Below, piece by piece: positions 577 through 44,746 of a stretch of 64,000 bases of DNA. Each line of letters begins with the position of its first letter. The stretch's first letter is position 1. The notes beneath the pieces are model-generated. The model was not told where the DNA came from. It ran no database searches and saw nothing but the letters and a program-made list of their open reading frames with translations. The DNA lies in NCBI GenBank assembly GCA_963800905.1, contig CAWDCT010000009.1, positions 80,681 to 144,680 of the forward strand. Reading direction: 5' to 3'. Position numbers and translations under genes: made by a program. Source of the DNA: an uncultured Solirubrobacteraceae bacterium (GTDB lineage Bacteria; Actinomycetota; Thermoleophilia; Solirubrobacterales; Solirubrobacteraceae).

Positions 577-814
577 GGGACGAACTTCTCGCTTGTAGGG
601 AGGCGGGTTGGGCGGCTTTCGGCCTCGAGATTCCGCGTAGCGGGATGCGCGCGCGGATTCGGGCTCGAAGCTGACGGCGGTTGGGGTTGTCTATGGGTCG
701 TATAGCGCGCACTGGACAAGCTCACGCGTTCGCAGCGACGCTCCGCCGCGGGCGCCGGCTCCACGATGCGACCGCCCTCCGGCCTTCCCTCAATGCAAGC
801 CGTTGACGTTCGCC
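577..814. repeat. Degenerate copy of the TIR-bounded intergenic palindromic element family (better copies at 8363, 17473, 44165)
   Basis: Right end CCCTCAATGCAAGCCGTTGACGTTCGCC (788-814) matches the CCCCACCCAGCGCAGTTGACGTTCGCC termini of the other copies. Left end GGGACGAACTTCTCGCTTGTAGGG (577-600) weakly matches GAAACGTCAACTGCGGCTGGGTAGGGG. The element ends 5 nt from the stop of the DsbA-like gene (819-821). Confidence 0.4.
683..723. repeat. About 40-nt palindromic mini-element, diverged copy (sibling of 28889..28928), nested in the degenerate element above
   Basis: GGGGTTGTCTATGGGTC-GTATAG-CGCGCACTGGACAAGCTC. The left arm is 15/17 identical to 28889-28905 and both are preceded by TT. The right arm is degenerate. 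Confidence 0.45.
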
Positions 815-7958: not shown

Positions 7959-8363
7959 ATGAGCGAACGCTGCGTGATCGTCGTCGACGAGGGTCTGCCG
8001 CCCGGTCTGGCCGCCAACGCGGCCGCCGTGCTCGCGCTGACGCTCGGCGCCCGCGAGCCCGGGCTGGTCGGCGCCGACTTCGTCGACGCGGACGCGCGAG
8101 CCGCATCCCGGCCTGATCCCGATCGGCCTGCCCGTGCTGCGCGCGCCGCGGCCGAGCTCGTCGAGATCCGGCGCCGGGCTGCCGCGGACGGCGTGGGCGT
8201 CGTCGACTTCCCGGTGTTCGGGCAGCAGACGAACGACTACGACGAGTTCCGGGGGATGGTCGCGGCGACGCCGGCGGCCGAGCTGTCGTACCTGGGCGTC
8301 GCGCTGGCGGGTTCGGCGCGGGCGGTGCGGCGGTTGACCGGGCGGCTGGCGCTGCTCCGATGA
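7959..8363 (+). pseudogene. DUF2000-family protein; two compensating frameshifts as given
   Basis: MSERCVIVVDEGLPPGLAANAAAVLALTLGA...FVDAD, then HPGLIPIGLPVLRA only in a second frame (about 8108-8148), then AAELVEIRRRAAADGVGVVDFPVFGQQTNDYDEFRGMVAATPAAELSYLGVALAGSARAVRRLTGRLALLR*. Confidence 0.7.
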
Positions 8364-8539
8364 ACGTCAACTGCGCTGGGTGGGGAGTGGCGAGCACGGC
8401 TAACGTGCAATCGGGCGCGGTCGCGGTGCGCCCGATTGCACGTTAGGTGACCCCCGCCGGATCCGACTCCGTGCATCTGCACGCGCCCAGCGCGACGGAT
8501 TGCACGCCACCTGCCGCCCCACCCAGCGCAGTTGACGTT
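8363..8539. repeat. TIR-bounded palindromic intergenic element, copy with a distinct core (MITE/REP-like)
   Basis: Termini AACGTCAACTGCGCTGGGTGGGG (8363-8385) and CCCCACCCAGCGCAGTTGACGTT (8517-8539) are perfect reverse complements. The core has a perfect 18-bp stem, TAACGTGCAATCGGGCGC / GCGCCCGATTGCACGTTA, at 8401-8445. It fills the gap between convergent genes (stops at 8363 and 8546). Confidence 0.8.
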
Positions 8540-8545
8540 CGCCGC

Positions 8546-9595
8546 TCAAGCCGAGGTCTGGGTGACCTTCCGCAGCCCCCGCGGCACGTCCGGATCGATC
8601 CCCTTCGCGCGCGCCAGCGCCTCGACCAGCAGCTGCCCCGGCACGACGAGCGTCAACGGCGACAACCACGGCGGGCAGCGCGGCTTCGGGCAGCGCGGCA
8701 ATGGCACGCCGCGGCGAACTCGGCGTCGCCGCCGATCCCGTAGACGTGCCCGCCGTCCTCGGCGCAGCGTCGCGCCAGCGCGGTCATCGCGGCCGAGCAT
8801 CGCCTCGTCGCGCTCGGCGGCGATCAGCAGCGCCGGCGTGTCGGCGTCGACGACGGCGATCGGCCCGTGCTCGAGGTCCGCGTACGACAGTCCGAGCGCG
8901 GTGACGTAGCACGCCTCCTCGAGCTTCAGGGCCAGCTCGCGGGCCACCGCGTACGCGTAGCCGCGCGCCGAGACGACGAGCGTGCTGCACGTAGGTGAGC
9001 CGCTCGGCGAGCGCCTCGGCCGCGCCGGCGACCGTCGAGCGCGCGCGCGCAGCGCGTCGGGCGCGCCGCGCAGCGCGTCGAGCGCCGCCCGGTCGCCGCC
9101 CAGCGCCAGCCCCAGCACGGCCAGCGCCGCGAGCTGGGTCGTGAACGTCTTGGTGGCGGGCACCGCCAGCTCCTCGCCCGCCCGCGTGACCAGCGCGAGA
9201 TCCGCGCGCGAGGCCAGCGGCGAGTCGCCGTCGTTCGTGATCGCCACGCAGCGAGCGCCGCACGACCGCGCCCAGTCCTGCGTCGCCACGATCTCCTCCG
9301 TGCGGCCCGGACTGCGAGACCGCCACGGCCAGCACGCCGGACAGATCCACTGAGCGCGTCGGTAGGCCGTGGCCACCGACGGCGACGCCAGCACGCCGAG
9401 CCGGCCGGCACGCACGCTGCACAGGTACTGCCCGTAGACGGCCGCGTTGTCCGACGACCCGCGCGCGATGAACAGCACCTGCCGCATCCCCGCGCCGAGC
9501 CGCTCGATCTCGCCGGCCAGCGGCAGCAGGTCGTCGAGCGTCGCGGCCACCGCCGCCGGCTGCTCGAAGATCTCCGCCCGCATCCGCGTGCTCAT
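8546..9595 (-). pseudogene. SIS-domain sugar-phosphate isomerase/deaminase (AgaS / GlcN6P deaminase type II-like); several frameshifts as given
   Basis: ATG 9595 gives MSTRMRAEIFEQPAAVAATLDDL...VLFIARGSSDNAAVYGQYL...GRTEEIVAT...CVAITNDGDSPLA...ELAVPATKTFTTQLAALAVL...ARELALKLEEACYVTALGLSYADLEHGPIAVVD...LVVPGQLLVEALARAKGIDPDVPRGLRKVTQTSA*. Intervening pieces (for example SVDLSGVLAVAVSQSG) lie in other frames. ATGA overlap with the nagA stop. Confidence 0.8.
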
Positions 9596-10677
9596 GCGGC
9601 CACGCCCAGCTCGTCGTGGACCAGCTCGCCGCCCACCCACGTGGCCCGCGCGCGGTACCCGTCGTCGAGCCAGACGAGGTCGGCCGCCGCGCCCGGCTCG
9701 ATCCGGCCGAGGTCGCGGCGGCGGAGCAGGTCGGCGGGAACGCGGCTCGCCGCCTCGATCGCCAGCGCCGGCGGCACGCCGATCGCCACCGCCCGCGCCA
9801 CCGCCTCGTCGAGCCGCAGGACGGCCCCGGCGAGCGTGCCGTCCGGCCGCCGCGGCGGCTCGCCCTCGCGCGTGATCACCGGCTCTCCGCCCAGCTCGTA
9901 GAGGCCGGGCGGCATCCCGGCGGCGGCGATCGCGTCGGTGACCAGCGCGATCCGCCCGCCCGCGGCGGCGAACGCGACAGAAGCGACCGCCTCGACCACG
10001 TGGTGGCCGTCGAGGATCAGCCCGCAGGCCAGCCGCTGGATCGGCCAGCGCCTGCCCCGCGACGCCCGGGCTCGCGGTGGTGGATCCCGCGCATCGCGTT
10101 GAAGAGGTGCGTGACCATCCGCGCGCCCGCACCGGCGGCCGCCGCCACCATCATCGGCGCGCGCGTCGCTGTGGCCGACGCTGACCAGCACGCCCGCCGC
10201 GGCCAGCCGCGAGATCGCCTCCAGCGCGCCCGCCCGCTCCGGCGCCAGCGTGATCAGCGCCATCGTCCGCGGCTCGAGCAGCGCGTCGATCAGCTCCGGC
10301 TCGGGGTCGCGGAACAGCGACGCGTCATGGGCGCCCTTGCGCTCCGCGGCCAGGAACGGTCCCTCGACGTGCACGCCGAGGATCCGCGCGCCCGGCAACG
10401 AGCGCGGCACGCGCCGCAGGCCGTCCACCAGATCGTCGAGCGGCGCGGTGATGAAGGTCGGCAGGAAAGCCGTCACGCCCGTCTCCGGCAGCCGCGCGGC
10501 GGCGGCCGACCAGTCCTCGTCGTGCGCGAAGTCGACCCCGAAGCAGCCGTTGACCTGGAGGTCGATCAGGCCCGGCGCGAGCACCCCCGAGGGCAGCACG
10601 ACGTCGGGCGGCCCGGCGGCCTCCACGATCCGCCCGTCCTCGACGCCCACGGTCACGTTCGGCGCGGCGATGACCAC
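9592..10677 (-). pseudogene. nagA: N-acetylglucosamine-6-phosphate deacetylase; internal double frameshift as given
   Basis: ORF 9592..10677: GLIDLQVNGCFGVDF...ILGVHVEGPFL...VLVSVGHSD...ACGLILDGHHV...IALVTDAIAAAG. The expected VTHLFNAMRGIHHREPGVAGQALADP segment is present only in another frame (seen in ORF 8546..10132). Confidence 0.85.
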
Positions 10678-10699
10678 GCCGCCACTCTATGAGCCGCGG

Positions 10700-12189
10700 T
10701 CAGTCGGCGGGGATCGTCACGTTGCGGCCCGCCTCCTTGGCGGCCGCCAGCGCGTCCTGGCAGCGGGCGAGCAGCAGCTCGGCCGGCTCCTCGCCGTCCC
10801 AGCGCGCGACGCCCGCCGACGCGGTCTGCCCGCGCGGCGTCGCCGCCCGCACGCGGTCGAGCACCTCGACCGCCTCGCCGAGCCCGCAGCTCGGCAGCAG
10901 CACGCCGAACTCGGTGCCCTCGAGCCGGGCCAGCATGTCGACCTCGCGCAGCTCGCCGCGCCAGCGCGACGCGGTCTCCTTGATCAGCCGGTCGCCCTCG
11001 CGCTCGCCGCGCAGCATGTTGAAGGCGCTCATGTGATCGATGTCGACGATCGCCACGACGAGCGGCGACTCGCCGCGGCGGGCGCGCGCCAGCTCGCGCG
11101 GCAGCTCCTCGTCCCACACCCGGCGCGTCACCAGGCCGGTGAGCTGGTCGGTCAGCGCCAGCGCGCCCATCCGGCTGCGCAGCGCCGCGTGCTCGATCGC
11201 CACCGCCGCCTGCGCGGCCAGCAGCCGCAGCACGCCGGCCGGCGCGTCCTGCAGCGCCTCGAGCGGCTTCTGCCAGATCACGATCAGCACGCCGGCCACC
11301 TGGCCGTCGCGCAGCACCGGCTCGAACACGGCCGAGCGGGCGCCGGTGGCCTCCACGAGCGGCGCGGCCAGCGCGGGGTGCGTGCGCGCGTCGGCGACGA
11401 AGTAGGTCTCCTTGGAGGTGAACGCGCGGCCGGGGCCGGACGGCGTGTCGCCGCGCGGCTGGATCGTCACCGGCGCGATCTCCACGCCGGCCATGGCGGT
11501 CGAGACGAAGTCGCGGCCGGCGGGCTCGAGCAGGAAGGCGACCGGCGCCCCGGCGACCTCGCAGGCCGCCTCGCAGACCGCGGTGCGCGCGTCGTCGGCG
11601 GCGGCCAGCGCCTTGGCCACGCGGCCGACCGCGCCCATCCCGCGCGCCTGGTCGCGCAGCATGTCGTTGAAGCGCCGCAGGTCGCGCTCGTTGCTCTCGC
11701 GCTCGAGCTCGGAGGCGAGCACGCGCGCGAGCATCAGGAACAGCTGCTCGTCGGCGTCCGTGAACGGCTGCGACCGAGTGGCGCAGCGCGGCGAGCGAGC
11801 CGACGCGCGTGCCGTCGGACAGCTCGAGCGGCACGCCGAGGTAGGCGCGGGCGCCGACGCGCTCCTGCATCGGCAGCGCCGAGTAGATCGGGTGGCGGCC
11901 GACCTCGTTGCACATCCGCGGCGCGCGGTCCTCGGCCATGTGCGAGTCGAAGGCGTCGCCGAGCGGGATCGCGAGGTTCGAGCGCAGGCCGACGCCGGAG
12001 CCGTTGCGGGCGTCGACGATGCGGTGGATGAACTGCGCGCGGTCGAGGTGCGCGAGGTAGAGCACGGACTCCGGGAGGTGGCGCTCGAGCAGGTCGAGCA
12101 CCGAGCGGGTGGCGTCGGCGAACGACCGGTAGGTCGTCGTGCGTGGCGGCCGCCGCCGCCTGGATCGCGCTCGTGTCCACGACGGCCAT
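10700..12189 (-). pseudogene. GAF-GAF-GGDEF diguanylate cyclase; 2 frameshifts as given
   Basis: ATG 12189 gives MAVVDTSAIQAAAAATHDD. A frame change near 12133 gives YRSFADATRSVLDLLERHLPESVLYLAHLDRAQF...AYLGVPLELSDGTRVGSLAAL (GAF). A frame change near 11745 leads into ORF 10700..11734, with a second GAF and the GGDEF domain (ALTDQLTGLVTRRVWDEEL...VVAIVDIDHMSAFNMLRGEREGDRLI...LARLEGTEFGVLLP). Confidence 0.8.
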
Positions 12190-12249
12190 TGTCGACGCTC
12201 CCCGCGCAGACCTCAAATCAGCAATCCGTCTAGGGTCTCGCACCTGTCG

Positions 12250-13050
12250 ATGCGGCTGGCCACCTTCATCCCACCCGGCGCGCGACGGAGCCGCGCGCCG
12301 GCGAGGTGCGCGGCGAGGAGGTCGTGAGCTTCGACGCCGGCACGGTCGTGCGACCGCCTGGCGTCGGGCGACCGCTCGCCCGCCGCCGGCGCCGGCCTAC
12401 CCGCTCGCCGACGTGACGCTGCTGGCTCCCGTCCCGCGCCCGCGCGCGATCTTCGGCATCGGCCGCAACTACGCGGCGCACGCCGCCGAGCTCGGCAACG
12501 AGCTGCCCGAGAAGCCGATGGTGTTCATGAAGCTGCCGACCTCGAGCGTGCCGCCCTCCGGCCCGGTCCGCTGCCCGGCGGTCGTCGCAGGAGCTCGACT
12601 ACGAGGCCGAGCTGGTCGTGGTGATCGGCGCAGGACGGCAGGATCGGCGGCTGGGCGGTCGGCGACGACGTCAGCGCCCGCGACCTCCAGCGCAGCGAGG
12701 AGCAGTGGACGCGCGCCAAGGGCTTCGACACCGCGTGCCCGTGGGGGCCGTGGATCACGACCGCCGACGAGCTGCCCGACGCGGTCGGCCTGCGGATCGG
12801 CTCATGGGTCAACGGCGAGCAGCGCCAGGACGCGAACACCGACCAGCTGATCTTCGGGCCGCAGCAGCTCGTCGACTTCATCGCCGAGACGATCACGCTC
12901 GAGCCGGGCGACATCATCCTCACCGGCACGCCCGACGGCGTCGGCATGGCCTTCGACCCGCCGCGCTACCTCGAGCCCGGCGACGTCGTGCGGATCGAGA
13001 TCGAGCGCCTCGGCTCGATCGAGCACGAAGTGCTCAGTGCTCGTGGATGA
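12250..13050 (+). pseudogene. Fumarylacetoacetate hydrolase (FAH)-family protein; about 3 frameshifts as given
   Basis: ATG 12250 gives MRLATFIPPG. Family-typical pieces lie in three frames: LLAPVPRPRAIFGIGRNYAAHAAELGNELPEKPMVFMKLPTS, ELDYEAELVVVIG, and WTRAKGFDTACPWGPWITT...GEQRQDANTDQLIFGPQQLVDFIAETITLEPGDIILTGTPDGVG...[21 protein letters not shown]. Stop TGA 13048-13050. Confidence 0.8.
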
Positions 13051-13616
13051 CGCGGTCGATCAGCCCGTACTCGGCGCGCCTGATCGGCCGTGAAGAAGCG
13101 GTCGCGCTCCATGGCGGTGTGGACCTCTTCCTCGGGCTGCCCCGTGTGCTTCGCGTAGATCTCGTCGACGCGCTTGCGCGTCTTGAGGATCTCCCGGGCG
13201 TGGATCTCGATGTCCGTCGACTGGCCCTCGAAGCCGGCTGACGGCTGGTGGATGAGGATGCGCGAGTTCGGCAGCGACATCCGCTTGCCCTTCGCCCCGC
13301 CGGCCAGCAGCAGCGAGCCCATCGACATCGCGATCCCGACGCACATCGTCGCCACGTCGGGCTTGATGAACTGCATCGTGTCGTAGATCGCCAGGCCGGC
13401 GTAGATCGAGCCGCCCGGCGAGTTGATGTAGATCGAGATGTCCTTGTCGGGGTCCTGCGACTCGAGGTGCAGGAGCTGGGCGACGATCAGGTTGGCCACC
13501 TGGTCGTCGACCGCGCTGCCGAGGAAGATGATGCGCTCGTTGAGGAGGCGCGAGAAGATGTCGAACTCGCGCTCGCCGCGGGCCGTGCGCTCGATGACCA
13601 TCGGGACCAGAGGCAT
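13034..13616 (-). pseudogene. clpP: ATP-dependent Clp protease proteolytic subunit; C-terminal frameshift as given
   Basis: ORF 12966..13616: [81 protein letters not shown]...ILIHQPS. After ...[10 protein letters not shown] the expected ...[11 protein letters not shown] is in another frame (stop at 13034-13036). Convergent 17-nt overlap with the FAH gene. Confidence 0.9.
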
Positions 13617-13698
13617 GGCGGCTGATACTAGACGGAGATCGCACGGGGGCCCGCCCTAGCGGCGGAGAACGTGCGGAGCGTCCCCCGCTAGGGCACCC

Positions 13699-14262
13699 CT
13701 AGGCGGCGGCCGGTGTGCGGCGCCGCAGGCGCCCGAGCAGGCGCTCGATGCGGCGGCCGACCCGGCGGCGGTCCAGGTGCAGCGTGTCGGCGACGTCGCC
13801 GGCCGACGTGCCGTCGACCAGCATGGCCAGCAGCGCCAGGTCCTCGGGCTCGATCAGGTGGGCGGCGGCGTCCAGCTCCTCGCGGTCGAGCGGCGGGAGC
13901 GCGAGCCCGCCGCGCGCGACGACGCGGATCGCCTCGAACAGCTCGGCCGGCTCGGCCGCCTTGTCGACCAGCCCGTCGGCCCCGGCCACGCGCGCCATCA
14001 GCGCGTCCATCTCGGACGTGTAGATGATCACCCGCGGCGCGTGCGGCAGCGCCTTCAGCCGCCGGCACAGCGCCAGCCCGTCGCCGTCGAGCAGGTGGTG
14101 CTCGAGCAGGACGACGTTCGGGCGCAGGCGGTCGACGAGCTCGAACCCGTCGTCGGCGCCGGTGGCGGCGCCGACCGGGACGAGGCCGGGCTCGGTGCGG
14201 AGCAGCATCGTGAGCCCCGCGCGGACCGCCGGCTGGGGGTCGACGATGGCTACGCGGGTCAC
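13699..14262 (-). CDS. Response regulator (REC domain plus C-terminal sigma-70 region-4/LuxR-like HTH)
   Basis: ORF 13699..14328. Likely GTG start at 14262 (VTRVAIVDPQPAVRAGLTMLL...NVVLLEHHLLDGDGLALCRRLK...PRVIIYTS). C-terminal LALLAMLVDGTSAGDVADTLHLDRRRVGRRIERLLGRL. No cognate kinase is adjacent. Confidence 0.8.
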   Translation of the reverse strand: MTRVAIVDPQPAVRAGLTMLLRTEPGLVPVGAATGADDGFELVDRLRPNVVLLEHHLLDGDGLALCRRLKALPHAPRVIIYTSEMDALMARVAGADGLVDKAAEPAELFEAIRVVARGGLALPPLDREELDAAAHLIEPEDLALLAMLVDGTSAGDVADTLHLDRRRVGRRIERLLGRLRRRTPAAA

Positions 14263-14372
14263 GCGCTGGACCCTTCCAACCAGGGCTGAACCGTGCGTAA
14301 AGGATTCGTGAGCCACGTCTTCATCCAAGCATGCGTCCTGGTCGGATCTTGTGAACGCATAGGGTTCGCGAA

Positions 14373-16679
14373 ATGCGGAGGAGAATCCTCGCGGCCGTCA
14401 CGGTCATGACCGTGCTCGCCGCCCCCGCGGCCGCCCAGGCCGCCAAGAAGAGCTACCGCGCCGAGGTGCGGCGGACGACGGGCGGCTGGGCCCACGTGAA
14501 GGCGGCGAACTACGGGTCGCTGGGCTTCGGCTACGGCTACGCGTACGCGCAGGACCAGCTGTGCGAGCTGGCCGACATCGTGGTCACCGTCAACGCGCAG
14601 CGCTCGCGCTACTTCGGGCCTGAGGACGGCAACCTCGAGTCGGACTTCTTCTTCCAGCGGATCAAGGACATGCGCACGGTGCAGAAGCTCGTGCGCCGCA
14701 AGCCGCCGCACGGCCCGTCCAAGGCGGCGCGCGACACGATCAAGGGCTTCGCCGCCGGCTACAACGCGTACCTGAAGCGCACGGGCCGCGACAAGCTGCC
14801 CGATCCCACCTGCCGCGGCAAGCGCTGGGTGCGCCCGATCACCGCGCTCGACATGTACCGGCGCATCTACCAGCTGGGGCTGCGCGCCAGCTCGGCGAAC
14901 TTCCGCAACGAGATCGTGGCCGCCGAGCCGCCGCGCGGCAACGCGAGCGCCGCCCGCGCGGTCGACCCGCAGGCGTTCAACCGCCGCCTCGGCGCCGAGT
15001 CGCTGGGCTCCAACGGCCTCGGCATCGGCCGCGACGGCGCCAACGGCGAGCGCGCGCTGCTGCTCAGCAACACGCACTTCCCGTGGAGCGGCTCGGAGCG
15101 CTGGTACGAGGTGCACCTGACGATCCCCGGCAAGCTGAACGTGATCGGCGCCGCGCTCCAGGGCGTGCCGGTGGTCAACCTCGGCTTCACGCGCGGGGTC
15201 GCGTGGACCCACACCGTCTCCACGGCCCGGCGCTTCACCCCGTACGAGCTGGACCTCCGCCGCGGGCGCCCGACCGAGTACGTGGTCGACGGCCGCAACG
15301 TGAAGATGCGCAAGCGGACGGTGCGGGTCCGCGTGGGCGGCGGCGTGCGCCGGCACACCTTCTACGAGACGCGCTGGGGGCCGGTGTTCTCGTTCGACCT
15401 GGCGGGCCTGACTTGGGGGACCGAGCACGCCTACGCGCTCGCCGACGTCAACGCCGACAACTTCCGGCTCGTCAACCAGTGGGAGCAGTACGACCGCGCG
15501 CAGTCGGTCGCGCGACCTACGGCGCGCCAACCGGCGCGTGCAGGGCAACCCGTGGACGAACACGATCGCCGCCGACTCGGCCGGCAACGCGTACTACTCG
15601 GACGAGTCGGTGGTGCCGAACGTCGACGCCGACCTCCAGTCGCGCTGCTCCTCCGACAACCCGATCACGCCGCTGCTGCTCTCGCAGGGCGTGGTCCTGC
15701 TCGACGGCTCGCGCGTCGCGGTGCCGCTGGAAGAACGACCGCGACGCGGTGGCGAAGGGCATCATCGGCCCGGGCGGGCTGCCGCGCGCGACGCGCACGG
15801 ACTACGTGGAGAACTCCAACGACTCCTACTGGCTGCCGAGCGCGCGCTTCCGGCTCGACGGCTTCCCGCGCATCATCGGCGGCGAGGGGACGCAGCGGCT
15901 GCTGCGCACGCGGCTCGCGATGACGCTGGCCGAGCAGCGGCTGGCGGGCACCGACGGCCTCGGGCCGCCCGGCTTCACGCTCCCGACGCTCCAGGCCGTG
16001 ATGTTCGGCAACCGCAACCTGAGCGCCGAGCTGGCGCGCGACTCGACGGTCTCGGCCTGCCAGGCGAGCGGGCGGGCGGACCTCGCCGAGGCGTGCACGG
16101 TGCTGGCCGCGTGGGACACGCGGTCGGACATCGGCTCGCGCGGCGCCGTGCTGTGGCGCGAGTACTGGTCTGCGGCTGTCGGGAGCCGGCGTGCCGTGGA
16201 CGACCGCGTACGACCCGGCCGATCCGGTCAACACGCCGCGCGGGCTCGATCCCGCGAGCCCGGCGATCATCACGGCGCTGACCGGGGCGGTCGAGGACCT
16301 GCGCGCGAAGGGCATCGCGCTCGACGTGCCGCTCGGCGATCTCCAGGCCGAGCCGCGCGGGAGCGAGCGGATCCCGATCCACGGCTGCAGCGAGAGCGAG
16401 GGCTGCTTCAACATCGTCACCACCGACCGCGACGCCCAGGGCCGCTACGACCCGCGCACCGGCGCCTCGTTCATCATGACCGCGGCGTTCGACCCGAACG
16501 GCGTGCCGCGCGGTGAGGCGGTCCTCTCGTACTCGCAGTCGGAGAACCCGGAGTCGCCGCACTACGCGGACCAGACGCGGCTGTTCTCGCAGAAGCAGTG
16601 GCTGCCGATGCGCTTCACCGAGGCGCAGATCCGCAGCGACCCGGAGTACGAGCGGACGGTGGTGACCGGGCGCAGATGA
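14373..16679 (+). pseudogene. Penicillin/acyl-homoserine-lactone acylase (Ntn-hydrolase, peptidase S45; PvdQ-like); 3 frameshifts as given
   Basis: Signal peptide MRRRILAAVTVMTVLAAPAAAQA. Alpha chain ...GFGYGYAYAQDQLCELADIV.... Beta-chain nucleophile context GAESLGSNGLGIGRDG...LLLSNTHFPWSGSERWYEVHL. Then QGNPWTNTIAADSAGNAYYSD (ORF 15538 frame), YVENSNDSYWLP (ORF 15083 frame) and ...SYSQSENPESPHYADQTRLFSQKQWLPMRF...* (ORF 16191..16679). Frame switches near 15515, 15722 and 16185. Confidence 0.85.
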
Positions 16680-17496
16680 GCGAGAAGGCGCGCGGCGTCG
16701 CGCTTGTCGTCGCCGCCGTCAGCTCGCTCCAGTTCGGGGCCGGGTTCGCCGTCACGCTGTTCGACGAGCTCGGCCCCGCGGGGGCGGCCTTCCTGCGCCT
16801 CTCGATCGCCGCCGTCGTGCTGGTGGCGATCTGGCGGCCGCGGCCGCACGGCGAGCTCGGGCTCGCCGCGGCCTTCGGGGTCACGCTCGGCCTGATGAAC
16901 CTCTGCATCTACGAGGCGATGGACCGCATCCCGTTGGGCATCGCGGTCACGATCGAGTTCTGGGGGCCGCTCGCCGTCGCGGTGGTCGGCTCGCGGCGGC
17001 CGCTCGACCTGCTGTGGGTGGCGCTCGCCGCCGCCGGCATCGTCCTGCTCGCCGATCCGGGCGGCTCGCTCGACACCGTGGGCGTCGCCTTCGCGATCGC
17101 CGCCGGCGGCCTGTGGATCGGCTACATCCTCCTGTCGGCGCGGGTCGGCGCGGTGTACCCGGGCGGGACCGGGCTGGCGATCGCGATGGTCTTCGGGGCG
17201 CTGGTCACGCTGCCCTTCGGCGTCGGAACCGACCTGCTCGCCCCGGAGATGCTGGCCGCCGGCGCCGTGGTCGCGCTCGCGTCGTCGGTGATCCCGTACT
17301 CGTTCGAGCTCGAGGCGCTGCGGCGCCTGCCGGCGCGCGTGTTCGGCGTGCTGATGTCGTTGGAGCCCGCGGTCGCCGCGCTCGCCGGGCTCGTCGTGCT
17401 CGGGCAGGCGCTGGCGCTGACGAGTGGGTGGCGATCGGGCTGGTGGTGGTGGCGAGCGCCGGCATCACCGCGGAAACGTCAACTGCGGCTGGGTAG
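16676..17496 (+). pseudogene. EamA/DMT-family transporter (RhtA-like exporter); 1 frameshift near 17420
   Basis: ATG 16676 overlaps the acylase stop (ATGA). MSEKARGVALVVAAVSSLQFGAGFAVTLF...GLMNLCIYEAMDRIPLGIAVTIEFWGPLAVAVV...SSVIPYSFELEALRRLPARVFGVLMSLEPAVAALAGLVVLGQAL, then WVAIGLVVVASAGITAETSTAAG* in the frame of ORF 17014..17496. The last 8 codons and the stop lie inside the repeat at 17473. Confidence 0.8.
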
Positions 17497-17640
17497 GGGG
17501 AGCGGGGAGGCCGGCGGAGCCGGTTTCCTTCGTCGAATCCTGCCTGGGGGTCGGATAGCGACCCCTATCCAGGACTCGACGTCGAACTCCACCGCCCGGC
17601 TGGCTCCCTCACTCCCCCACCCAGCGCAGTTGACGTTTCC
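17473..17640. repeat. TIR-bounded palindromic intergenic element (MITE/REP-like), reference copy
   Basis: Ends GAAACGTCAACTGCGGCTGGGTAGGGG (17473-17499) and CCCCACCCAGCGCAGTTGACGTTTCC (17615-17640). Central hairpin CCTGGGGGTCGGATAGCGACCCCTATCCAGG. About 88% identical by eye to the reverse complement of 44165..44298. Confidence 0.8.
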
Positions 17641-17826
17641 CCTCATCCGCGGGATGGAGTCACAGCCGGGCCGCACCTACCGTCGCGGCCATGACCTACG
17701 TCCTCGAACGCAACCAAGACGAGTACGAGCGCATGCGCCGGCAGGCGCTGATGTGGGCGCGGCGGTCGACGATCGCGATCGCCGAGCGCGCCGCCGACCT
17801 CATCCGCGCCTGAGGACTAACGTCCC

Positions 17827-18392
17827 ATGCCTGTTCGAGCTCAACGTCCCGAACGTCCTGACGGTCGTCCGGATCCTGCTGATCCCGGTGCTCATCGCCC
17901 TGCTCCTGTCGGAGTTCGCGAGCGACACGCTGGCCGCCGGCGTGTTCATCCTCGCGAGCGTCACCGACGCGCTCGACGGCTGGCTGGCCCGCCGCCACAA
18001 GAAGCGAGTCGAACTTCGGCAAGCTGATGGACCCGCTGGCCGACAAGCTGCTGGTCACCAGCGCGCTCGTCTCGCTCGTCGCGCTCGACCGGCTACAGGC
18101 CTGGGTGGCGATGGTGATCATCGCGCGCGAGTTCGCCGTCACCGGCCTGCGCCAGCTGGCGGTCGAGCAGGGGCACGTGCTCGCCGCGAACACGTGGGGG
18201 AAGGTCAAGACCGTCCTCCAGATCGCGATGGTGCTCGCGCTCATCACGGTCGACGGGTCGCCGGCGTGGGTCGACGCGCTCGTCTACGTGACCGTCGCCG
18301 TCACCGTCTACTCGGGCGCCGACTACTTCTTCGGCTTCCGCGCGCTGATCAACGCAAGACAAGCGAGTGCTCGGGCAGCCAGCCGACAGTGA
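17827..18392 (+). pseudogene. pgsA: CDP-diacylglycerol--glycerol-3-phosphate 3-phosphatidyltransferase; about 2 frameshifts as given
   Basis: LFELNVPNVLTVVRILLIPVLIALLL...ILASVTDALDGWLARRHK (frame of ORF 16598..18511), then FGKLMDPLADKLLVTSALVSLV...MVIIAREFAVTGLRQLA... (ORF 18027..18392). CDP-alcohol phosphatidyltransferase motif DGxxARx8GxxxDxxxD. The ATG at 17827 is one nt out of frame with the first segment. Confidence 0.8.
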
Positions 18393-27231: not shown

Positions 27232-29193
27232 TGGACCGGCTGCTTCATCCGCGATCGGTCGCCATCGTGGGCGCGAGCGAGCGGCCGTCGACGTACTCGT
27301 CGGAGACGCTCCTGAACCTGCGCCGGCTGGGCTTCGAGGGGGACGTCTGGGGCGTCAACCCGCGGCGCTCGTCGGTCTACGGGCTGCCGTGCTTCTCGTC
27401 CCTGAGCGACCTGCCGTCGGCGCCCGACGCGGTGGTGGTCGCGATCCCGGCGCCGGGCGTGCCGGCTGTGATCGAGGAGGCGGGCGCGATCGGGTCGGGC
27501 GGCGCCGTCGTGTACGCGGCCGGGCTTCGGTGAGTCGGAGGCGGGCGCCGCGCTCGAGCAGGCATTGAGGGAGGCCGCTGGGCGGTACTCGCTGCCGGTC
27601 TGCGGGCCGAACTGCGACGGGCTGGTGTCGCTGTGGTCGCGCGCCGCGCTGTGGGGCGACGCGCTGGCGGCGCCCGAGCCGGGCCACGTCGCGCTGGTGT
27701 CGCAGAGCGGCAACCTCGTCGTGAACGCGCTGGCGACGCGGCGCGGGCTGCGGCTGCACACCGCGGTGTCGAGCGGCAACGAGACCGTGGTCACGACGCC
27801 CGACTGGGTCGAGCACCTCGCGCGCGAGCCGGGCGTGCACTCGATCGCGCTGCTGGTCGAGGCCGAGGGCGACGGCGCGCGGCTGTGCGAGGCGCTCGCG
27901 GTGTGCGCCGACGTGGGCGTGGGCGTGGCGGTGCTGAAGGTCGGCGCCTCGGCCGCGCGGCGCGGCCGCGGCGGCCGCGCACACCGGCGCGGTGGCCGGC
28001 GACCACCGCGTCTTCCGCGCGCTGATGGAGGAGGCGGGCGCGGCGTGGGCGGCCGACGTGCACGAGCTGCTCGAGCTGGCGAAGGCGCTGGCGGTGCGGG
28101 ACGCGCGGCCGCGCGGCGGCGGGCTGGCGATCCTCACGTGCTCGGGCGGCGACTCGGGGCTCGGCGCCGACGAGGCGGACCGGCTCGGGCTCGACCTGCC
28201 CGCGTTGTCTGCCGTCGACGGTCGCGTCGTTGCGCGCGCGGCTGCCGGCCGCCGCGACGGTCGCCAACCCGCTCGACTACACGGCGATGATCTGGGGCGA
28301 GGTCGAGACGCTGCGCGACCTCGTGCGCGACGGTCGGCGAGGACCCGGCGATCGGCCACGTGCTGGTCTTCTACGACCGGCCGCCGGGGATCGCCGGCCA
28401 TTCGGCCGAGAGCTGGGACGCCGTCGAGGAGGGGATCCTGGCCGGCGCCGCCGTCAGCCCGGTGCCGGTGATGGTGGCGGCGACGCTGCCGGAGCTGCTG
28501 GACGACGAGGCCGCCTGGCGCTTCGCGGAGGCCGGCGTGCCGGCGATCGCGGGGCTGCGGACCGGCGTGGCGGTCGCGGCCGCGCTGGCGGCGCCGCCCG
28601 GTCAGCGCCGGCGTCTGCGAGAGATCGCGCGCGTTCGCGGATCGCCGCGTGGCGGGGCGCTGGCTCGCCGAGCACGAGGCGAAGGCTCTGCTTCGTTCGC
28701 GCGGCGTGCCCGTCGTTCGTGGACGGCTTGCATTGAATGAGGACGACGCCGTTGCGGCGTTCCATGAGCTGGGGGGGCGCGTGGCGTTGAAGGTGTCGAG
28801 CGCCGCCGTGCAGCACAAGACCGCGATCGGAGGCATCGCCCTCGACGTCCGCGACGAAGCCGGCGTCCGCGAGGCATTTCGGCGGCTTGGGGTTGTTTGT
28901 GGGTCCATATCGACCCACAGACAACCCCAGCCGAGTTCTCGTCGAGGCCATGGTCGACGCCCGGCGACGAGGTCTTCGTCGCGGTCCGCTACGACGCCGT
29001 CGTTCCCGTCCTCGTCATCGGCCGCGGCGGCACCGACGTCGAGCGCTCACGACGACGTCGACGATCATCCCGCTGCCGACGCCCCGCCAAGCGGACATCG
29101 TGAAGGCGCGCCGAAGGCCTCGCCCTACTCGAATGCAACCCAGTGATCGGCGGCGTCGTCGTCGATGCCACCGCCCAGGAGGCCGCCCCGTGA
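27231..29193 (+). pseudogene. ADP-forming acyl-CoA synthetase (acetate--CoA ligase family: CoA-binding, succinyl-CoA-synthetase-like and ATP-grasp domains); about 6 small frameshifts plus a 40-nt insertion
   Basis: GTG 27231 (TAGTG overlap) gives VDRLLHPRSVAIVGASERPS...GVNPRR...DAVVVAIPAPGVPAVIEEAG. Then PVCGPNCDGLVS...VALVSQSGNLV (ORF 27565). GLAILTCSGGDSGLGADEADRLGL. ATP-grasp WLAEHEAKALLRSRGVPVVRG...GGRVALKVSSAAVQHKTAIGG. ...VLVEAMVDA...DEVFVAVRYDAVVPVLVIGRGGTDVE. The end ...LLECNPVIGGVVVDATAQEAAP* was read by hand. Confidence 0.75.
28889..28928. repeat. 40-nt palindromic mini-insertion inside the acyl-CoA synthetase coding region
   Basis: GGGGTTGTTTGTGGGTC CATATC GACCCACAGACAACCCC (17-bp arms, 1 mismatch). 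23/40 GC versus a much higher local GC. Deleting exactly these 40 nt joins ...CGG CGG CTT|AGC CGA GTT CTC GTC GAG... = RRL|SRVLVEAM, linking the two coding frames. Confidence 0.75.
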
Positions 29194-41889: not shown

Positions 41890-42958
41890 ACGCGCGAAGC
41901 GCCGGCACGGGCTCGCCGATGCCGCGCAGCTCGTAGGCGCCGGCGTCCTCCCAGCCGAGCGCGTCGCCGCATGCCGTCCGGACCTCGGCCGTTGCCAGCA
42001 CGGTCCACGGCGGCGCGACCGTGCACAGCCGCGCGGCGAGGTTGACGGTTCGCCCGAGCCAGTCGCCGGCACTGTGCAGCGCCGGCCCGTGGGCGACGCC
42101 GGCGTGCACGGGCGGCAGGTCCTCGTCGGCCGCCGCCGCGACCAGCTCGAGCTGCGCGGTCACCAGGGCGGCGGCGTCGTCCGCCGCGAACATCGCGCCG
42201 TCGCCGAGCACCTTCACAAGCCGCACGGGCGCTTCTGCGACCCCGGTGGCCAGCTCCTCGAATCGCGCCGCGATCCGCCCGAGGTCCTCGATCGCGAGCC
42301 GGTCGCTGAGCGCGGTGAAGCCCGCCAGATCGGCGAAGGCGACGGTCACGTCGCGCGTGCCGGCCAGGTCGCCCTCCAGCCGTACGACGGCCTCGCGCTG
42401 GATCACGTCGAGCAGGTGCAGCCGCAGCGCGGACCCGGTCACCCGGTCGAGCATCGGCAGCACCGCCTCGGCGAGGTTGGCGAGCCGCCGCGCCAGGTCG
42501 GCCTCGGTGTCGCCCGGCCGCAGCAGCGCGCGCGAGACGACGTCGACGATCGCCTGGGCGGTCCGGCGCGAGGACTGCCCGAGGATGCGGCCCATGACCT
42601 GGATGTCCTGCTCCGGCACGCCCAGCTCGCGCATCCCGCGCAGGACCTTGAGGACCTCGATCTGGTCGTCGTCGTAGATCGGCTCGTCGTTGCCCGGCAG
42701 CGGCAGGCCGAGCGCGCGGTGGTTGTCGGCCGCGAACTCCTCGCTGACCTCGGCCGCGCGGGCTCCCTCGCGCAGGCTGTGCCTGCGGCGCCGCGCCAGC
42801 AGCCGCTCGACCGGCAGCAGCGGCAGCCGCCCGGCCGCGGTCGCCGCCTCCAGCTCCTCCAGCGTGGCGCCGTCGGCATGCAGCCTTTCCAGGAACTCCA
42901 GCCGCGCCTGGCGCTCGTCCCCCTCCAGGCCCTCGAGCAGCGCACTGAAATCCGACAT
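41870..42958 (-). CDS. Class III adenylate/guanylate cyclase with an about 190-aa N-terminal regulatory region
   Basis: ORF 41870..42958 (362 aa). Cyclase core VTVAFADLAGFTALSDRL...RLVKVLGDGAMFAA...GDWLGRTVNLAARL...AYELRGIGEPV. Convergent 20-nt overlap with the SDR gene. Confidence 0.85.
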   Translation of the reverse strand: MSDFSALLEGLEGDERQARLEFLERLHADGATLEELEAATAAGRLPLLPVERLLARRRRHSLREGARAAEVSEEFAADNHRALGLPLPGNDEPIYDDDQIEVLKVLRGMRELGVPEQDIQVMGRILGQSSRRTAQAIVDVVSRALLRPGDTEADLARRLANLAEAVLPMLDRVTGSALRLHLLDVIQREAVVRLEGDLAGTRDVTVAFADLAGFTALSDRLAIEDLGRIAARFEELATGVAEAPVRLVKVLGDGAMFAADDAAALVTAQLELVAAAADEDLPPVHAGVAHGPALHSAGDWLGRTVNLAARLCTVAPPWTVLATAEVRTACGDALGWEDAGAYELRGIGEPVPALRAFTTPAR

Positions 42959-42991
42959 GCGCCGGACGCTATCCGGTGCTACCTTCGAGAC

Positions 42992-43513
42992 GTGTCACCT
43001 GGCAGGGGACACGTCGTTCAGGTGGCGCCTGACTCGAGCGGGGCCGCACGCCTACCGGCTCACGCGCCGCGGCTGTTCCGCGCGGCTTACGCCCTGGCGG
43101 GGACGCGGCCGGACGCCGAGGACCTGGTCCAGGAGACATTCGCGCGGGTCCTGGCGAGCCGCAAGGGGTCGCGGCATGCAGACGAGCTTCCGTACCTGAT
43201 GAGGGCATTGCGCAACACCTGGATCGACTGGCAGCGGGCGCGCGCCGCGCGTCCGCGGGCGAGCGGGGGCGAGACCGTCGACTGGGTCGTCGACGACTCC
43301 GCCGACCCGCAGGCCGCGGTCGAGGTGCAGACCGCCTACGAGGCGATGCGCGAGCTGTCGCCGCCGCTGCGCGAGGCGATCGCGGCGGTCGACGTGCTCG
43401 GCCTCTCCTACAAGGAGGCCGCTCGCTCGCTGAAGATCCGGCCGGGCACGCTGATGAGCCGGCTGTCGCGGGCGCGCGATCGCGTCGCCGATGCGCTGGA
43501 GGGGGCGTCATGA
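42992..43513 (+). CDS. ECF-type sigma-70 family sigma factor (start uncertain)
   Basis: In-frame part of ORF 42074..43513: ...RLFRAAYALAGTRPDAEDLVQETFARVL (region 2) ...LSPPLREAIAAVDVLGLSYKEAARSLKIRPGTLMSRLSRARDRV (region 4). GTG 42992 lies only 33 nt from the divergent cyclase start, so a later start is possible. Confidence 0.8.
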   Translation: MSPGRGHVVQVAPDSSGAARLPAHAPRLFRAAYALAGTRPDAEDLVQETFARVLASRKGSRHADELPYLMRALRNTWIDWQRARAARPRASGGETVDWVVDDSADPQAAVEVQTAYEAMRELSPPLREAIAAVDVLGLSYKEAARSLKIRPGTLMSRLSRARDRVADALEGAS

Positions 43514-44139
43514 GCATTGACGAACGTCACGAGCGGGTCAGCCGCGTGCTGGGGTCCGGCGGTCCGGCCGTGCCCGACACGCTGTACGTGCCGGTGGTCA
43601 AGGAGCGGCCGGCGCGCCGCCCGCGCCTGTGGGTGCCCACCGTGGCCGCGGCGGCGGCCGGCGTGGCGCTCGCGATCCTCGTCGTCGTGCTCACCTCCGC
43701 CGGCGAGTCCGGGCTGCGCGCCTACGCGAGCATCTCCGCGCGCCCCGAGACCCAGCCGACCCCGCGGAGCGACGGCGCGCTGCTCGATCGCTCCTTCCAG
43801 GGCGTCAGCTATCCCGACTGGTCGCGCAAGTTCGGCTGGATGGCCGAGGGTGCCCGGGCGGACGTCATCGAGGGCCGCCGCGCGGAGTCAGTCTTCTACA
43901 TGCACCACGGGCACCGGATCGCCTACACGGTGATCGAGGGCGCGCCGATCGCGCCGCCCGAGGACGCCACGACGCGGCGCGTCGGCGGCGTCACGCTGCG
44001 GCAGTTCCGCGACGGGCCGCGCGACGTCGTGACGTTCGTGCGCAACGGCCGCACCTGCGTGCTCGAGGGCGAGGTCCTCAGTCCCGAAACGCTGGTCGAG
44101 CTCGCCGCGTGGCGCGGCGACGGCGCCGTGAGCTTCTAG
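43510..44139 (+). CDS. Putative membrane anti-sigma factor
   Basis: ORF 43510..44139 (209 aa). ATGA overlap with the sigma gene stop. A single TM (LWVPTVAAAAAGVALAILVVVLT) and an extracytoplasmic domain. Assignment is by position only. Confidence 0.55.
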   Translation: MSIDERHERVSRVLGSGGPAVPDTLYVPVVKERPARRPRLWVPTVAAAAAGVALAILVVVLTSAGESGLRAYASISARPETQPTPRSDGALLDRSFQGVSYPDWSRKFGWMAEGARADVIEGRRAESVFYMHHGHRIAYTVIEGAPIAPPEDATTRRVGGVTLRQFRDGPRDVVTFVRNGRTCVLEGEVLSPETLVELAAWRGDGAVSF

Positions 44140-44164
44140 CTGCAAGTACCGAGCAGGTTGTTCA

Positions 44165-44298
44165 GTCGGCGAACTGCGGCTGATTTCCGCGTCGAATCCT
44201 GGATAGGGGTCGCTATACGACCCCAGGGCAGGATTCGTCGAAGGAAACCCGCCCCGCCGGCGTCCCCGCTGCCCCACCCAGCCGCGGTTGACGTTCGC
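44165..44298. repeat. TIR-bounded palindromic intergenic element, shortened copy in inverse orientation to 17473..17640
   Basis: Its reverse complement aligns with copy 17473: AACGTCAACCGCGGCTGGGTGGGGCAGCGGGGACGCCGGCGGGGCGGGTTTCCTTCGACGAATCCTGCCCTGGGGTCGTATAGCGACCCCTATCCAGGATTCGACG. The far end is truncated to CAGCCGCAGTTCGCCGAC. It lies between convergent genes (stops at 44139 and 44345). Confidence 0.8.
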
Positions 44299-44344
44299 CC
44301 GTCACGCACGCCGGCCGGAGGAACAACGTGCTCAGGAAGTAGGT

Positions 44345-44746
44345 CTAGCCGAGCGTCTCAGCCAGCACGGCGCGGTGCGTGGGGCGCGCGGCCTCGTAGC
44401 GCTCGCGCCCTGAATCGGTCAGGCAGGCCATGATGCCCCGCCGGTCCTCGGGGCACATGCCCCGCTTGACCAGGCCGTCCGTCTCCAGCCGCGCGACGAC
44501 GCGTGAGAGCGCGCTCTGGCTCAGGTGGACGGCGTCGGCGAGCTCCTGCATCCGGCGCTCGTCCTTGCCCGAGGTGGCCAGGCGCTCCAGCACCTCGAAC
44601 TCGCTGACGCCGAGGCCGTGCTCGTGCTGGAGCCGGCGCTCGAGCGCCGACGTAGTGCGGGCGTGGCGTTCCAGCAGCCAGCGCCAGCTGTCAACCAGCT
44701 CCGTGTCCACACCCATCGCGGTGGCCATTATATCAGTCCTGAGCAT
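44345..44746 (-). CDS. MarR-family transcriptional regulator
   Basis: ORF 44345..44746 (133 aa): LGVSEFEVLERLATSGKDERRMQELADAVHLSQSALSRVVARLETDGLVKR. The start may be ATG 44728. Confidence 0.85.
   Translation of the reverse strand: MLRTDIMATAMGVDTELVDSWRWLLERHARTTSALERRLQHEHGLGVSEFEVLERLATSGKDERRMQELADAVHLSQSALSRVVARLETDGLVKRGMCPEDRRGIMACLTDSGRERYEAARPTHRAVLAETLG

Follow-up and report, generated by a model that had tools for sequence, protein, structure and literature searches.

Small palindromic repeats shape the 3' ends of bacterial genes. To our knowledge, few families of such repeats, and almost no enzymes that mobilise them, are known outside the Proteobacteria. Here we describe a family of such repeats, which we call AACGTCAAC elements after the 9-mer with which their terminus begins, that came to light in a stretch of 64,000 nucleotides (nt) from an uncultured member of the Solirubrobacteraceae. 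This stretch (the window) is C9:80681-144680 of the metagenome-assembled genome (MAG) G000, which comprises 4.49 Mb in 16 contigs, has 72% GC and is ~62% complete; its nearest relatives are uncultured Solirubrobacteraceae of soil origin. Positions given without a contig are those of the window. The AACGTCAAC repeats are a lineage-specific family of soil Solirubrobacteraceae, ~80-440 bases long and hairpin-forming, and in this they are a bacterial repeat of a familiar type. Its interiors are swappable, however, it leaves no insertion footprint, and we could tie no mobilising enzyme to its termini.

The closest described systems are the repetitive extragenic palindromic sequences (REPs), which occur as doublets, as REP doublets forming hairpins (REPINs) and as bacterial interspersed mosaic elements (BIMEs), and include the GTAG and CGTC super-families (PMC2817692, PMC3733652). 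Like these, the AACGTCAAC elements are high-copy, GC-rich, lineage-specific extragenic palindromes without target-site duplication. They also share with REPs a position mostly downstream of open reading frames (ORFs) and a variable composition at orthologous sites (PMC3733652, PMC3184786); REPs between convergent ORFs lie within 20 bp of both 3' ends (Di Nocera 2013, PMC3733652). CGTC REPs have no known transposase (PMC3733652), which is also true of the AACGTCAAC family, and the CGTC followed by AA in the AACGTCAAC terminus can be compared with their CGTC tag followed by a stem. CGTC and GTAG REPs were not reported from Actinobacteria in the survey of PMC3733652. The AACGTCAAC elements differ from REPs in that their conserved unit is a 24-nt terminus that is not a hairpin and finds its pairing partner 80-400 nt away, in their modular interiors, and in having no associated REP-associated tyrosine transposase (RAYT), a gene that the highest-copy genomes lack altogether.

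Miniature inverted-repeat transposable elements (MITEs) that fold into long hairpins, such as Correia/NEMIS, ERIC/IRU and RUP (PMC3184786), have terminal inverted repeats (TIRs) around a non-coding core, a length of 80-440 bp and a long hairpin fold in common with the AACGTCAAC elements, and MITEs of these types can be co-transcribed with flanking genes and contribute stop codons to them (PMC3184786). In contrast to these MITEs, the AACGTCAAC elements have no target-site duplication, there is no insertion sequence (IS) with the same termini, and the interiors of copies are unrelated to one another. SPRITE of Streptococcus pneumoniae, in the summary of Croucher 2011 that PMC3184786 gives, contains a Rho-independent terminator motif, whereas the AACGTCAAC elements lack a U-tract, are much longer and are GC-rich. 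We found no family like the AACGTCAAC elements in the literature searched, which was of limited reach. An Rfam search at gathering thresholds returned two tRNAs only, and a permissive search returned generic long-hairpin plant miRNA models far below threshold. An earlier sequence-only reading of the window had not recognised the family.

The terminus has the consensus AACGTCAAC-TGCG(G)C-TGGGT(A/G)GGG, also written AACGTCAAC-NGCGGC-TGGGTRGGG, with a variant that ends ...GGCATTGAGGG. Termini in G000 were counted by scanning the genome for a 13-mer core and classifying the motif downstream of it as type A (..CTGGGTRGGG) or type B (..GGCATTGAGGGAGCGGGATC), which gave 146 termini, 124 of type A and 22 of type B. 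The 24-mer with up to two mismatches had 87 matches, and the reversed-pattern control had 0. Clean terminus pairs number 35 in G000 and span 118-419 nt; the unpaired termini have a decayed partner end or are situated within another element type. Relatives contributed 57 further pairs, which widen the span of sizes to 79-440 nt, and the minimal copies (79-85 nt) consist of the termini and short arms with nothing else. The sequence-only reading had proposed, from four loci, a family of intergenic palindromic elements bounded by TIRs and with no transposase in the window. The 146 termini in this genome and the further copies in its relatives bear this out, as the family is real and dispersed and has no transposase of its own.

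The family is confined to a narrow lineage. Termini were present in 25/25 other genomes of the genus that we searched, at 1-184 per genome, and in 8/51 genera in a sample of 200 Solirubrobacteraceae genomes, but in none of 16 genomes that represent five neighbouring families of the order. When 185,579 species genomes were scanned for the exact 24-mer, the matches were to Solirubrobacteraceae MAGs only, apart from one 2.4-kb contig binned elsewhere, which may be mis-binned. A search of a plasmid collection gave no match to the AACGTCAAC elements.

Conservation is near-total over terminus positions 0 to +23 and falls off steeply beyond them, with G in 88% of termini at -1 and C in 72% at -2. The 24-nt terminus has no internal complementarity, and pairing takes place only between the two ends of an element; the strings CGTC and GTAG do occur in it, but in a paired context. 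Arms rich in G and in C follow inward of the termini and lead to one or two core hairpins, whose loops are small and AT-containing. These cores belong to several unrelated families, 38/58, 35/46 and 11/13 of whose copies lie no more than 300 nt from a terminus.

Two complete copies are found in the window (Table 1), and each folds into a single near-perfect hairpin of ~-120 kcal/mol with a z score of ~-10 against dinucleotide shuffles, as RNA and as DNA. The copy at 8363 takes up the whole space that separates the convergent DUF2000-like and SIS-domain genes and contributes its first A to the TGA at 8361-8363; the SIS stop lies 7 nt beyond its right end, and its RNA fold is -120.7 kcal/mol (z -10.4). 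The copy at 17475 has the core hairpin GGGGTCG-ATAG-CGACCCC and a fold of -119.7 kcal/mol (z -10.1 as RNA, -9.4 as DNA), and the EamA-type frame upstream enters it and ends at the terminus's own TAG. The 23-mer consensus is exact at three of these four ends and had 0 matches in 100 shuffles. In the decayed copy at 581 the core is GGGGTTGTCT..GGGTCG, and the stop of the minus-strand gene, CTA at 819-821, lies 8 nt outside, which places it in the -11 class of stops described below. No U-tract or T-run follows the hairpin of the elements. Across 8000-18000 of the window we saw one U-tract terminator-like site in 10 kb, compared with 1.3 expected by chance; canonical intrinsic terminators are essentially absent there.

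Table 1. Coordinates of AACGTCAAC elements and related features in the window
Feature	Position	Strand	Details
Decayed element	581..810		Type B right terminus CCCTCAATGCAAGCCGTTGACGTT at 787-810, contig position C9:81490(-); degenerate left terminus at ~581-608
Complete element, 177 nt	8363..8539		Two perfect type A termini, 8363-8385(+) and 8517-8539(-)
Complete element, 163 nt	17475..17637		Type A termini; left, 17475-17498, with an extra G; right, 17615-17637(-), exact
Isolated core-type palindrome GGGGTTGT.TGTGGGTC.ATATCGACCCACAGACAACCCC	28889..28928		Inside an acyl-CoA synthetase gene
Left target-site duplication TCTAGC	44135..44140	+	Includes the TAG stop (44137-44139) of the anti-sigma gene
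IS481-family MITE	44141..44343		TIR-L TGCAAGTACCGAGCAGGTTGTTCAG at 44141-44165; TIR-R at ~44319-44343
Right target-site duplication TCTAGC	44344..44349	+	Includes the MarR gene stop (CTA on the + strand, 44345-47)

All four loci that the sequence-only reading had grouped into one family do carry AACGTCAAC sequence, but 44141-44343 is an IS481-family MITE that merely carries a partial copy. Reverse-complementary ends, which had been ascribed to every locus, are found in the 8363 and 17473 copies, while the 44165 and 577 copies each keep one good terminus. The likeness between the 17473 and 44165 copies in opposite orientation, put at ~88% by eye, is 86% over 100 nt and 89.7% over 107 nt by BLAST.

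The elements are strongly biased toward the 3' ends of genes. The G000 assembly contains many single-base indels, as indicated by its low completeness estimate and its broken long ORFs; in the SIS-domain gene (8546-10132) and elsewhere, long genes are split over two frames, consistent with indel errors. Exact reading frames in such an assembly are unreliable, including that behind the EamA stop at 17496, and distances to stops are approximate. We therefore assigned coding strands by local codon likelihood, a measure that was correct for 98.5% of known coding pieces. By this measure 101 of the 146 G000 termini face the 3' end of a gene and 17 the 5' end, the other 28 being unclear, so that 86% of the callable termini are at 3' ends. 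Where the incoming gene had a stop (n=96), it fell within -25..+20 of the terminus in 76/96 cases, with peaks at -5 (T[AG][AG]CG|AACG, n=13), -2 (TG|A, n=8), -11 (n=7) and +19 (the TAG of GGGTAGGG, n=12); a type B terminus gives TGA at +17. Elements that land within the final codons of a gene provide its stop from their terminus, as the TAG in GGGTAGGG, the TGA in CATTGAGGG, or TG plus A at the junction. Among the 21 pairs with both flanks callable, 14 are between convergent genes, 6 between tandem genes and 1 between divergent genes. The sequence-only reading had placed each copy within 0-47 nt of a stop codon and two copies in gaps between convergent genes, and both points agree with the genome-wide bias (101 vs 17), with the convergent gap filled by the 8363 copy, and with the stops read from the sequence at 8361-8363, 44137-44139, 44345-47 and 819-821. 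Element-encoded stop codons and C-terminal tails should be expected when these genomes are annotated.

Comparison of orthologous sites indicates that elements come and go and that their interiors change. Only two comparisons between filled and empty sites were found. The 8363 site is filled in G000, G007 and G015, with differing interiors, and empty in G004 and G041, where the convergent stops overlap (CGCTAG|GAC) or are 5 nt apart. At C9:5455, G000 and G007 have an element (660 and 155 nt, respectively) and G015 has none, while the flanks are 91-96% identical; the element lies within the final codons of a gene, whose protein now terminates at the TAG of the terminus. We saw no direct repeat around 35 inspected pairs, nor at either of these two sites, and the palindromic CG that flanks termini is absent at the informative sites. 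When G007 and G015, with flanks 94% identical, were compared at three sites (A, B and 8363), the left terminus was common at 3/3 and the right terminus at 2/3, with interiors that are unrelated or strongly diverged. At one G007/G015 site, the stops adjacent to the termini differ symmetrically, TGACG../..CGTCA compared with TAGCG../..CGGCTA.

Based on these observations, we favour the reading that the AACGTCAAC elements are mobile palindromic repeats of the REPIN/MITE kind that are non-autonomous and limited to one clade of Solirubrobacteraceae, and we consider it rather probable. Their movement or copying would be the work of an enzyme that acts in trans and recognises either the termini or the folded hairpin; given the lack of a duplication, this enzyme is unlikely to be a DDE transposase. 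The interiors may turn over through nested insertion or through gene conversion between copies. Persistence at gene ends could be due to the elements being harmless there, where they may also act as predicted hairpin terminators without a U-tract or as stabilisers of 3' ends. In an abundant, poorly studied group of soil Actinomycetota the family provides a cleanly modular repeat, with fixed ends and exchangeable hairpins, that rewrites the C-termini and stops of genes.

Several observations weigh against this reading. We identified no mobilising enzyme, and the case for mobility comes from presence/absence comparisons, in both of which the empty state could be a secondary deletion. With G000 as the outgroup of G007 and G015, parsimony points to a probable loss in G015 at C9:5455. 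Weak conservation reaches 2-8 nt beyond the termini (..CSGGCG), which leaves some play in their exact boundary, and a palindromic 2-bp CG duplication is still conceivable. The indels in G000 make distances to stop codons approximate, and the elements lack a U-tract.

The turnover of interiors also fits a different account, in which the elements are hairpin terminators or insulators selected by the host, whose spread and homogenisation need no machinery dedicated to mobility and rely on homologous recombination and gene conversion alone. The exchange of interiors between fixed termini at orthologous sites and the bias toward 3' ends and convergent gaps agree with it, as does a region nearly without canonical U-tract terminators; the relatively A/T-rich 9-mers AACGTCAAC and GTTGACGTT around a GC-rich stem may play a part like that of the A- and U-tracts of bidirectional terminators. 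However, gene conversion is unable to seed new loci, and the range of 1-184 termini between species of one genus, with many perfect copies in G011 and G018, points to bursts of active copying. We regard host selection without mobility as quite unlikely.

We searched for a parent element between the termini. No transposase gene lies within any terminus pair among the 35 pairs in G000 and 57 in relatives (92 pairs from more than 10 genomes, including genomes 92-98% complete), and the sole long pair among the 92 is an insertion of IS481. Two long terminus pairs in G000 (4.4 and 4.8 kb) were considered as parents and contain ordinary genes. The elements have the TIRs and the small non-coding size of classical MITEs, but the family fails that definition because it has neither a target-site duplication nor a full-length IS with the same TIRs; for the latter two, a search of G000 and its relatives came up empty. 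Classical MITEs of a DDE IS could still be at hand if the full-length copy is missing from the sample or unassembled and the duplication is obscured by decay. TIRs of 24 nt and small size are what one would see in that case, G000 is just ~62% complete, and the IS481-type MITEs described below show that such derivatives arise in this lineage. Yet there is no direct repeat in 35 pairs and two filled/empty comparisons, no parent turned up in the 92 pairs, which include pairs from genomes 92-98% complete, and the ISs beside termini (IS481 and IS30 families) keep their own ends and interrupt the cores. An origin as classical MITEs is, in our judgement, unlikely.

Other candidates for a mobiliser were also considered. 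IS30 was initially attractive, since it makes 2-3-bp duplications and uses its own inverted repeats as target. A frameshifted IS30-family transposase gene does lie inside a AACGTCAAC element (L331:1180-2742, G000:C2), where it interrupts the core hairpin beside CTAG. We nevertheless rejected it, since G011, G018 and G016 contain no IS30, the copy in G015 has no termini, and the one in G000 is within a core. The single copy of IS110 is unrelated to the elements. For an integron integrase, the best TIGR02249 matches scored ~75 bits against a cut-off of 265 bits and are Xer-like, and a reading of the elements as attC sites fails on dispersed rather than arrayed copies, of which only AAC...GTT fits RYYYAAC...GTTRRRY. 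A search for Y2 (IS91) transposases found no match, but neither did the control search, so it is uninformative.

Mobilisation by a RAYT, the Y1 HUH transposase of REPINs, deserves separate mention, as the doublet-like hairpin shape, the lack of duplication and the position at gene 3' ends between convergent genes are all as for REPs (PMC3733652, PMC3184786), and G000 does contain one Y1_Tnp gene. That gene is flanked by another repeat, GGGGTCWGACCCC, present at ~12 loci, which fits GGGGWSAS, a motif of TIRYT-type genes (PMC3733652). The highest-copy genomes, G011, G018 and G016, are without any Y1_Tnp, Y1 homologues are common in genera without elements, and the AACGTCAAC termini are not self-folding REP units. 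The elements have the extragenic 3'-end and convergent position without duplication that is typical of REPs, but lack the self-folding tagged unit of 20-40 nt and a flanking, co-distributed RAYT. RAYT mobilisation is already largely refuted by these results, and we give it very little credence. The sequence-only reading had called the repeats MITE/REP-like; the family fails the classical MITE definition as well as that of REP/RAYT systems.

The Y1 gene itself is a single-copy HUH transposase-like gene outside the window (L037:1324-1986, G000:C7). Its product of 188 aa contains the motifs HVHLL and YIARNP, and tandem palindromes TCAAGGGGTCTGACCCC lie just upstream of the gene. This 14-mer occurs 25 times at ~12 loci, mostly as inverted doublets. 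The gene and its palindromes look like a second, small system of the TIRYT/REP type that fits GGGGWSAS.

A further lead comes from paralogues that combine AbiEi_4 with DUF559/REase_MTES_1575, of which there are ~3-8 per genome. In at least 8/19 loci examined, the 5' end of the ORF carries a strong hairpin, which lies 600-730 nt upstream of the DUF559 match; one gene has hairpins on both sides. These 5' hairpins belong to core families of the dispersed elements, whose copies are embedded between separate conserved termini. A G011/G018 paralogue has a terminus and a CGAACTATC...GATAGTTCG core, both as in the commonest elements of those genomes, and the hairpin of the G000 C7 paralogue matches the cores of three elements. 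A terminus, arm and core stand directly upstream of two independent paralogue groups, one of which is adjacent to sodA and keeps its synteny in at least 10 species. In one paralogue group, the DNA that codes for PRPHVNTRIEG matches the type B terminus and its outer flank at 27/31 positions (Smith-Waterman score 42-44, compared with a shuffle maximum of 24-26 and a locus background of ~14-20); 26 other DUF559 genes gave background scores.

These genes allow for a REPtron-like alternative without an HUH or DDE transposase. Each AbiEi-DUF559 paralogue would bind its own core hairpin, and the nuclease would nick at or near the common AACGTCAAC termini and drive the copying or exchange of hairpin cassettes at gene ends; cores would be variable and termini invariant because each paralogue binds its own core while the termini are shared. 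The confirmed architecture, a winged-helix AbiEi DNA-binding domain fused to a Vsr-like DUF559 nuclease, suits such a role, as do the hairpins of core families at the 5' side of at least 8/19 loci with one gene bracketed, the terminus, arm and core in front of two paralogue groups, and the 27/31 match. On the other hand, DUF559 copy number does not follow the elements in 201 genomes of the family, the coding-DNA similarity is limited to one paralogue group, and most genes have the hairpin on their 5' side alone, where it could be an AbiEi autoregulatory operator. Alternatively, the genes could have entered elements that were already there, like the IS481 and IS30 copies. The inverted repeat that the sodA-linked gene appears to have on its right-hand side is not significant and falls within coding sequence, and an origin of the type A terminus in that paralogue was rejected, since its scores are at background. 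We hold the REPtron-like alternative to be possible, though doubtful. If the DUF559 link is true, it would point to a new class of repeat-associated nuclease, and would provide a function for the large DUF559 family and a partner enzyme for orphan palindromic repeats. In G041, the AbiEi-DUF559 gene downstream of sodA has lost ~870 nt internally (L367:280-520, G041:C8), and what remains is the upstream terminus, the arm, the core hairpin and the last ~35 codons.

The locus at 44141-44343 is an IS481-type MITE, a distinct mobile element with a captured partial AACGTCAAC element. Its interior consists of a deleted left terminus (CGAACTGCGGCTG at 44170-44182), a core hairpin and a right terminus with 2 mismatches (44272-44295), and in this interior it differs from other members of the IS481 family. 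The IS481-type TIR has 33 matches at ~20 loci in G000, where it bounds small elements. A full-length 1.06-kb IS of the IS481 family with the same TIRs was found in G011 (L121:997-2396, G011:C5); it encodes a transposase of 367 aa with rve and the IS481 leucine zipper (LZ_Tnp_IS481), and its TIR TGTAGGACCCGAGCAGGTTGTTCA can be compared with TGCAAGTACCGAGCAGGTTGTTCA in the window. The TIRs start with TGT/TGC, and the duplication at the MITE is 6 bp, NCTAGN, both as in the IS481 family. A comparison of filled and empty sites in G007 and G015, respectively, shows a CTAG duplication for this type of MITE. As the AACGTCAAC element is carried by the MITE, the outer flank GACGGGCG is common to many apparently solo termini.

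IS481 elements are known from ISfinder and the Bordetella literature to prefer CTAG. In this 72% GC genome CTAG is rare outside stop codons and the loops of the elements. The AACGTCAAC elements attract other mobile elements because their loops hold this sequence: the G011 IS is inserted, with a CTAG duplication, at a CTAG in the core loop of an element, and a second IS481-like IS and the IS30-family IS interrupt element cores for the same reason. In G007 an IS481-type MITE lies at the CTAG common to two convergent stops (L187:9830-11270, G007:C1), with the orthologous G015 site empty; a second IS481-like IS, with a transposase of 332 aa, is nested in its CCTAGG core loop. At site C, where both G007 and G015 have an IS481-type MITE, the interiors differ. 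Next to the MITE of the window, ~1.87 kb of the sigma/anti-sigma region (42314-44183) is present in G000 and absent in G015, and the breakpoint coincides with the MITE's left edge (44141). This is suggestive of a rearrangement that the element mediated or that took place beside it.

We also noted some variation at the ends of AACGTCAAC elements. Many copies in G011 and G018 have an extra AACGTC hexamer at both ends. Tandem arrays of 2-3 termini or terminal fragments on one strand, spaced by 30-60 nt, were seen at L351:700-790 (G018:C13), in the right flank of L202 (G011) and at G009:C160:78799-78940. Together, the arrays and the hexamer hint at repeated events at one end, or at slippage of a 6-nt unit. 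Finally, the palindrome inside the acyl-CoA synthetase gene at 28889 is similar in style to the core of the 581-810 copy and has no AACGTCAAC termini.

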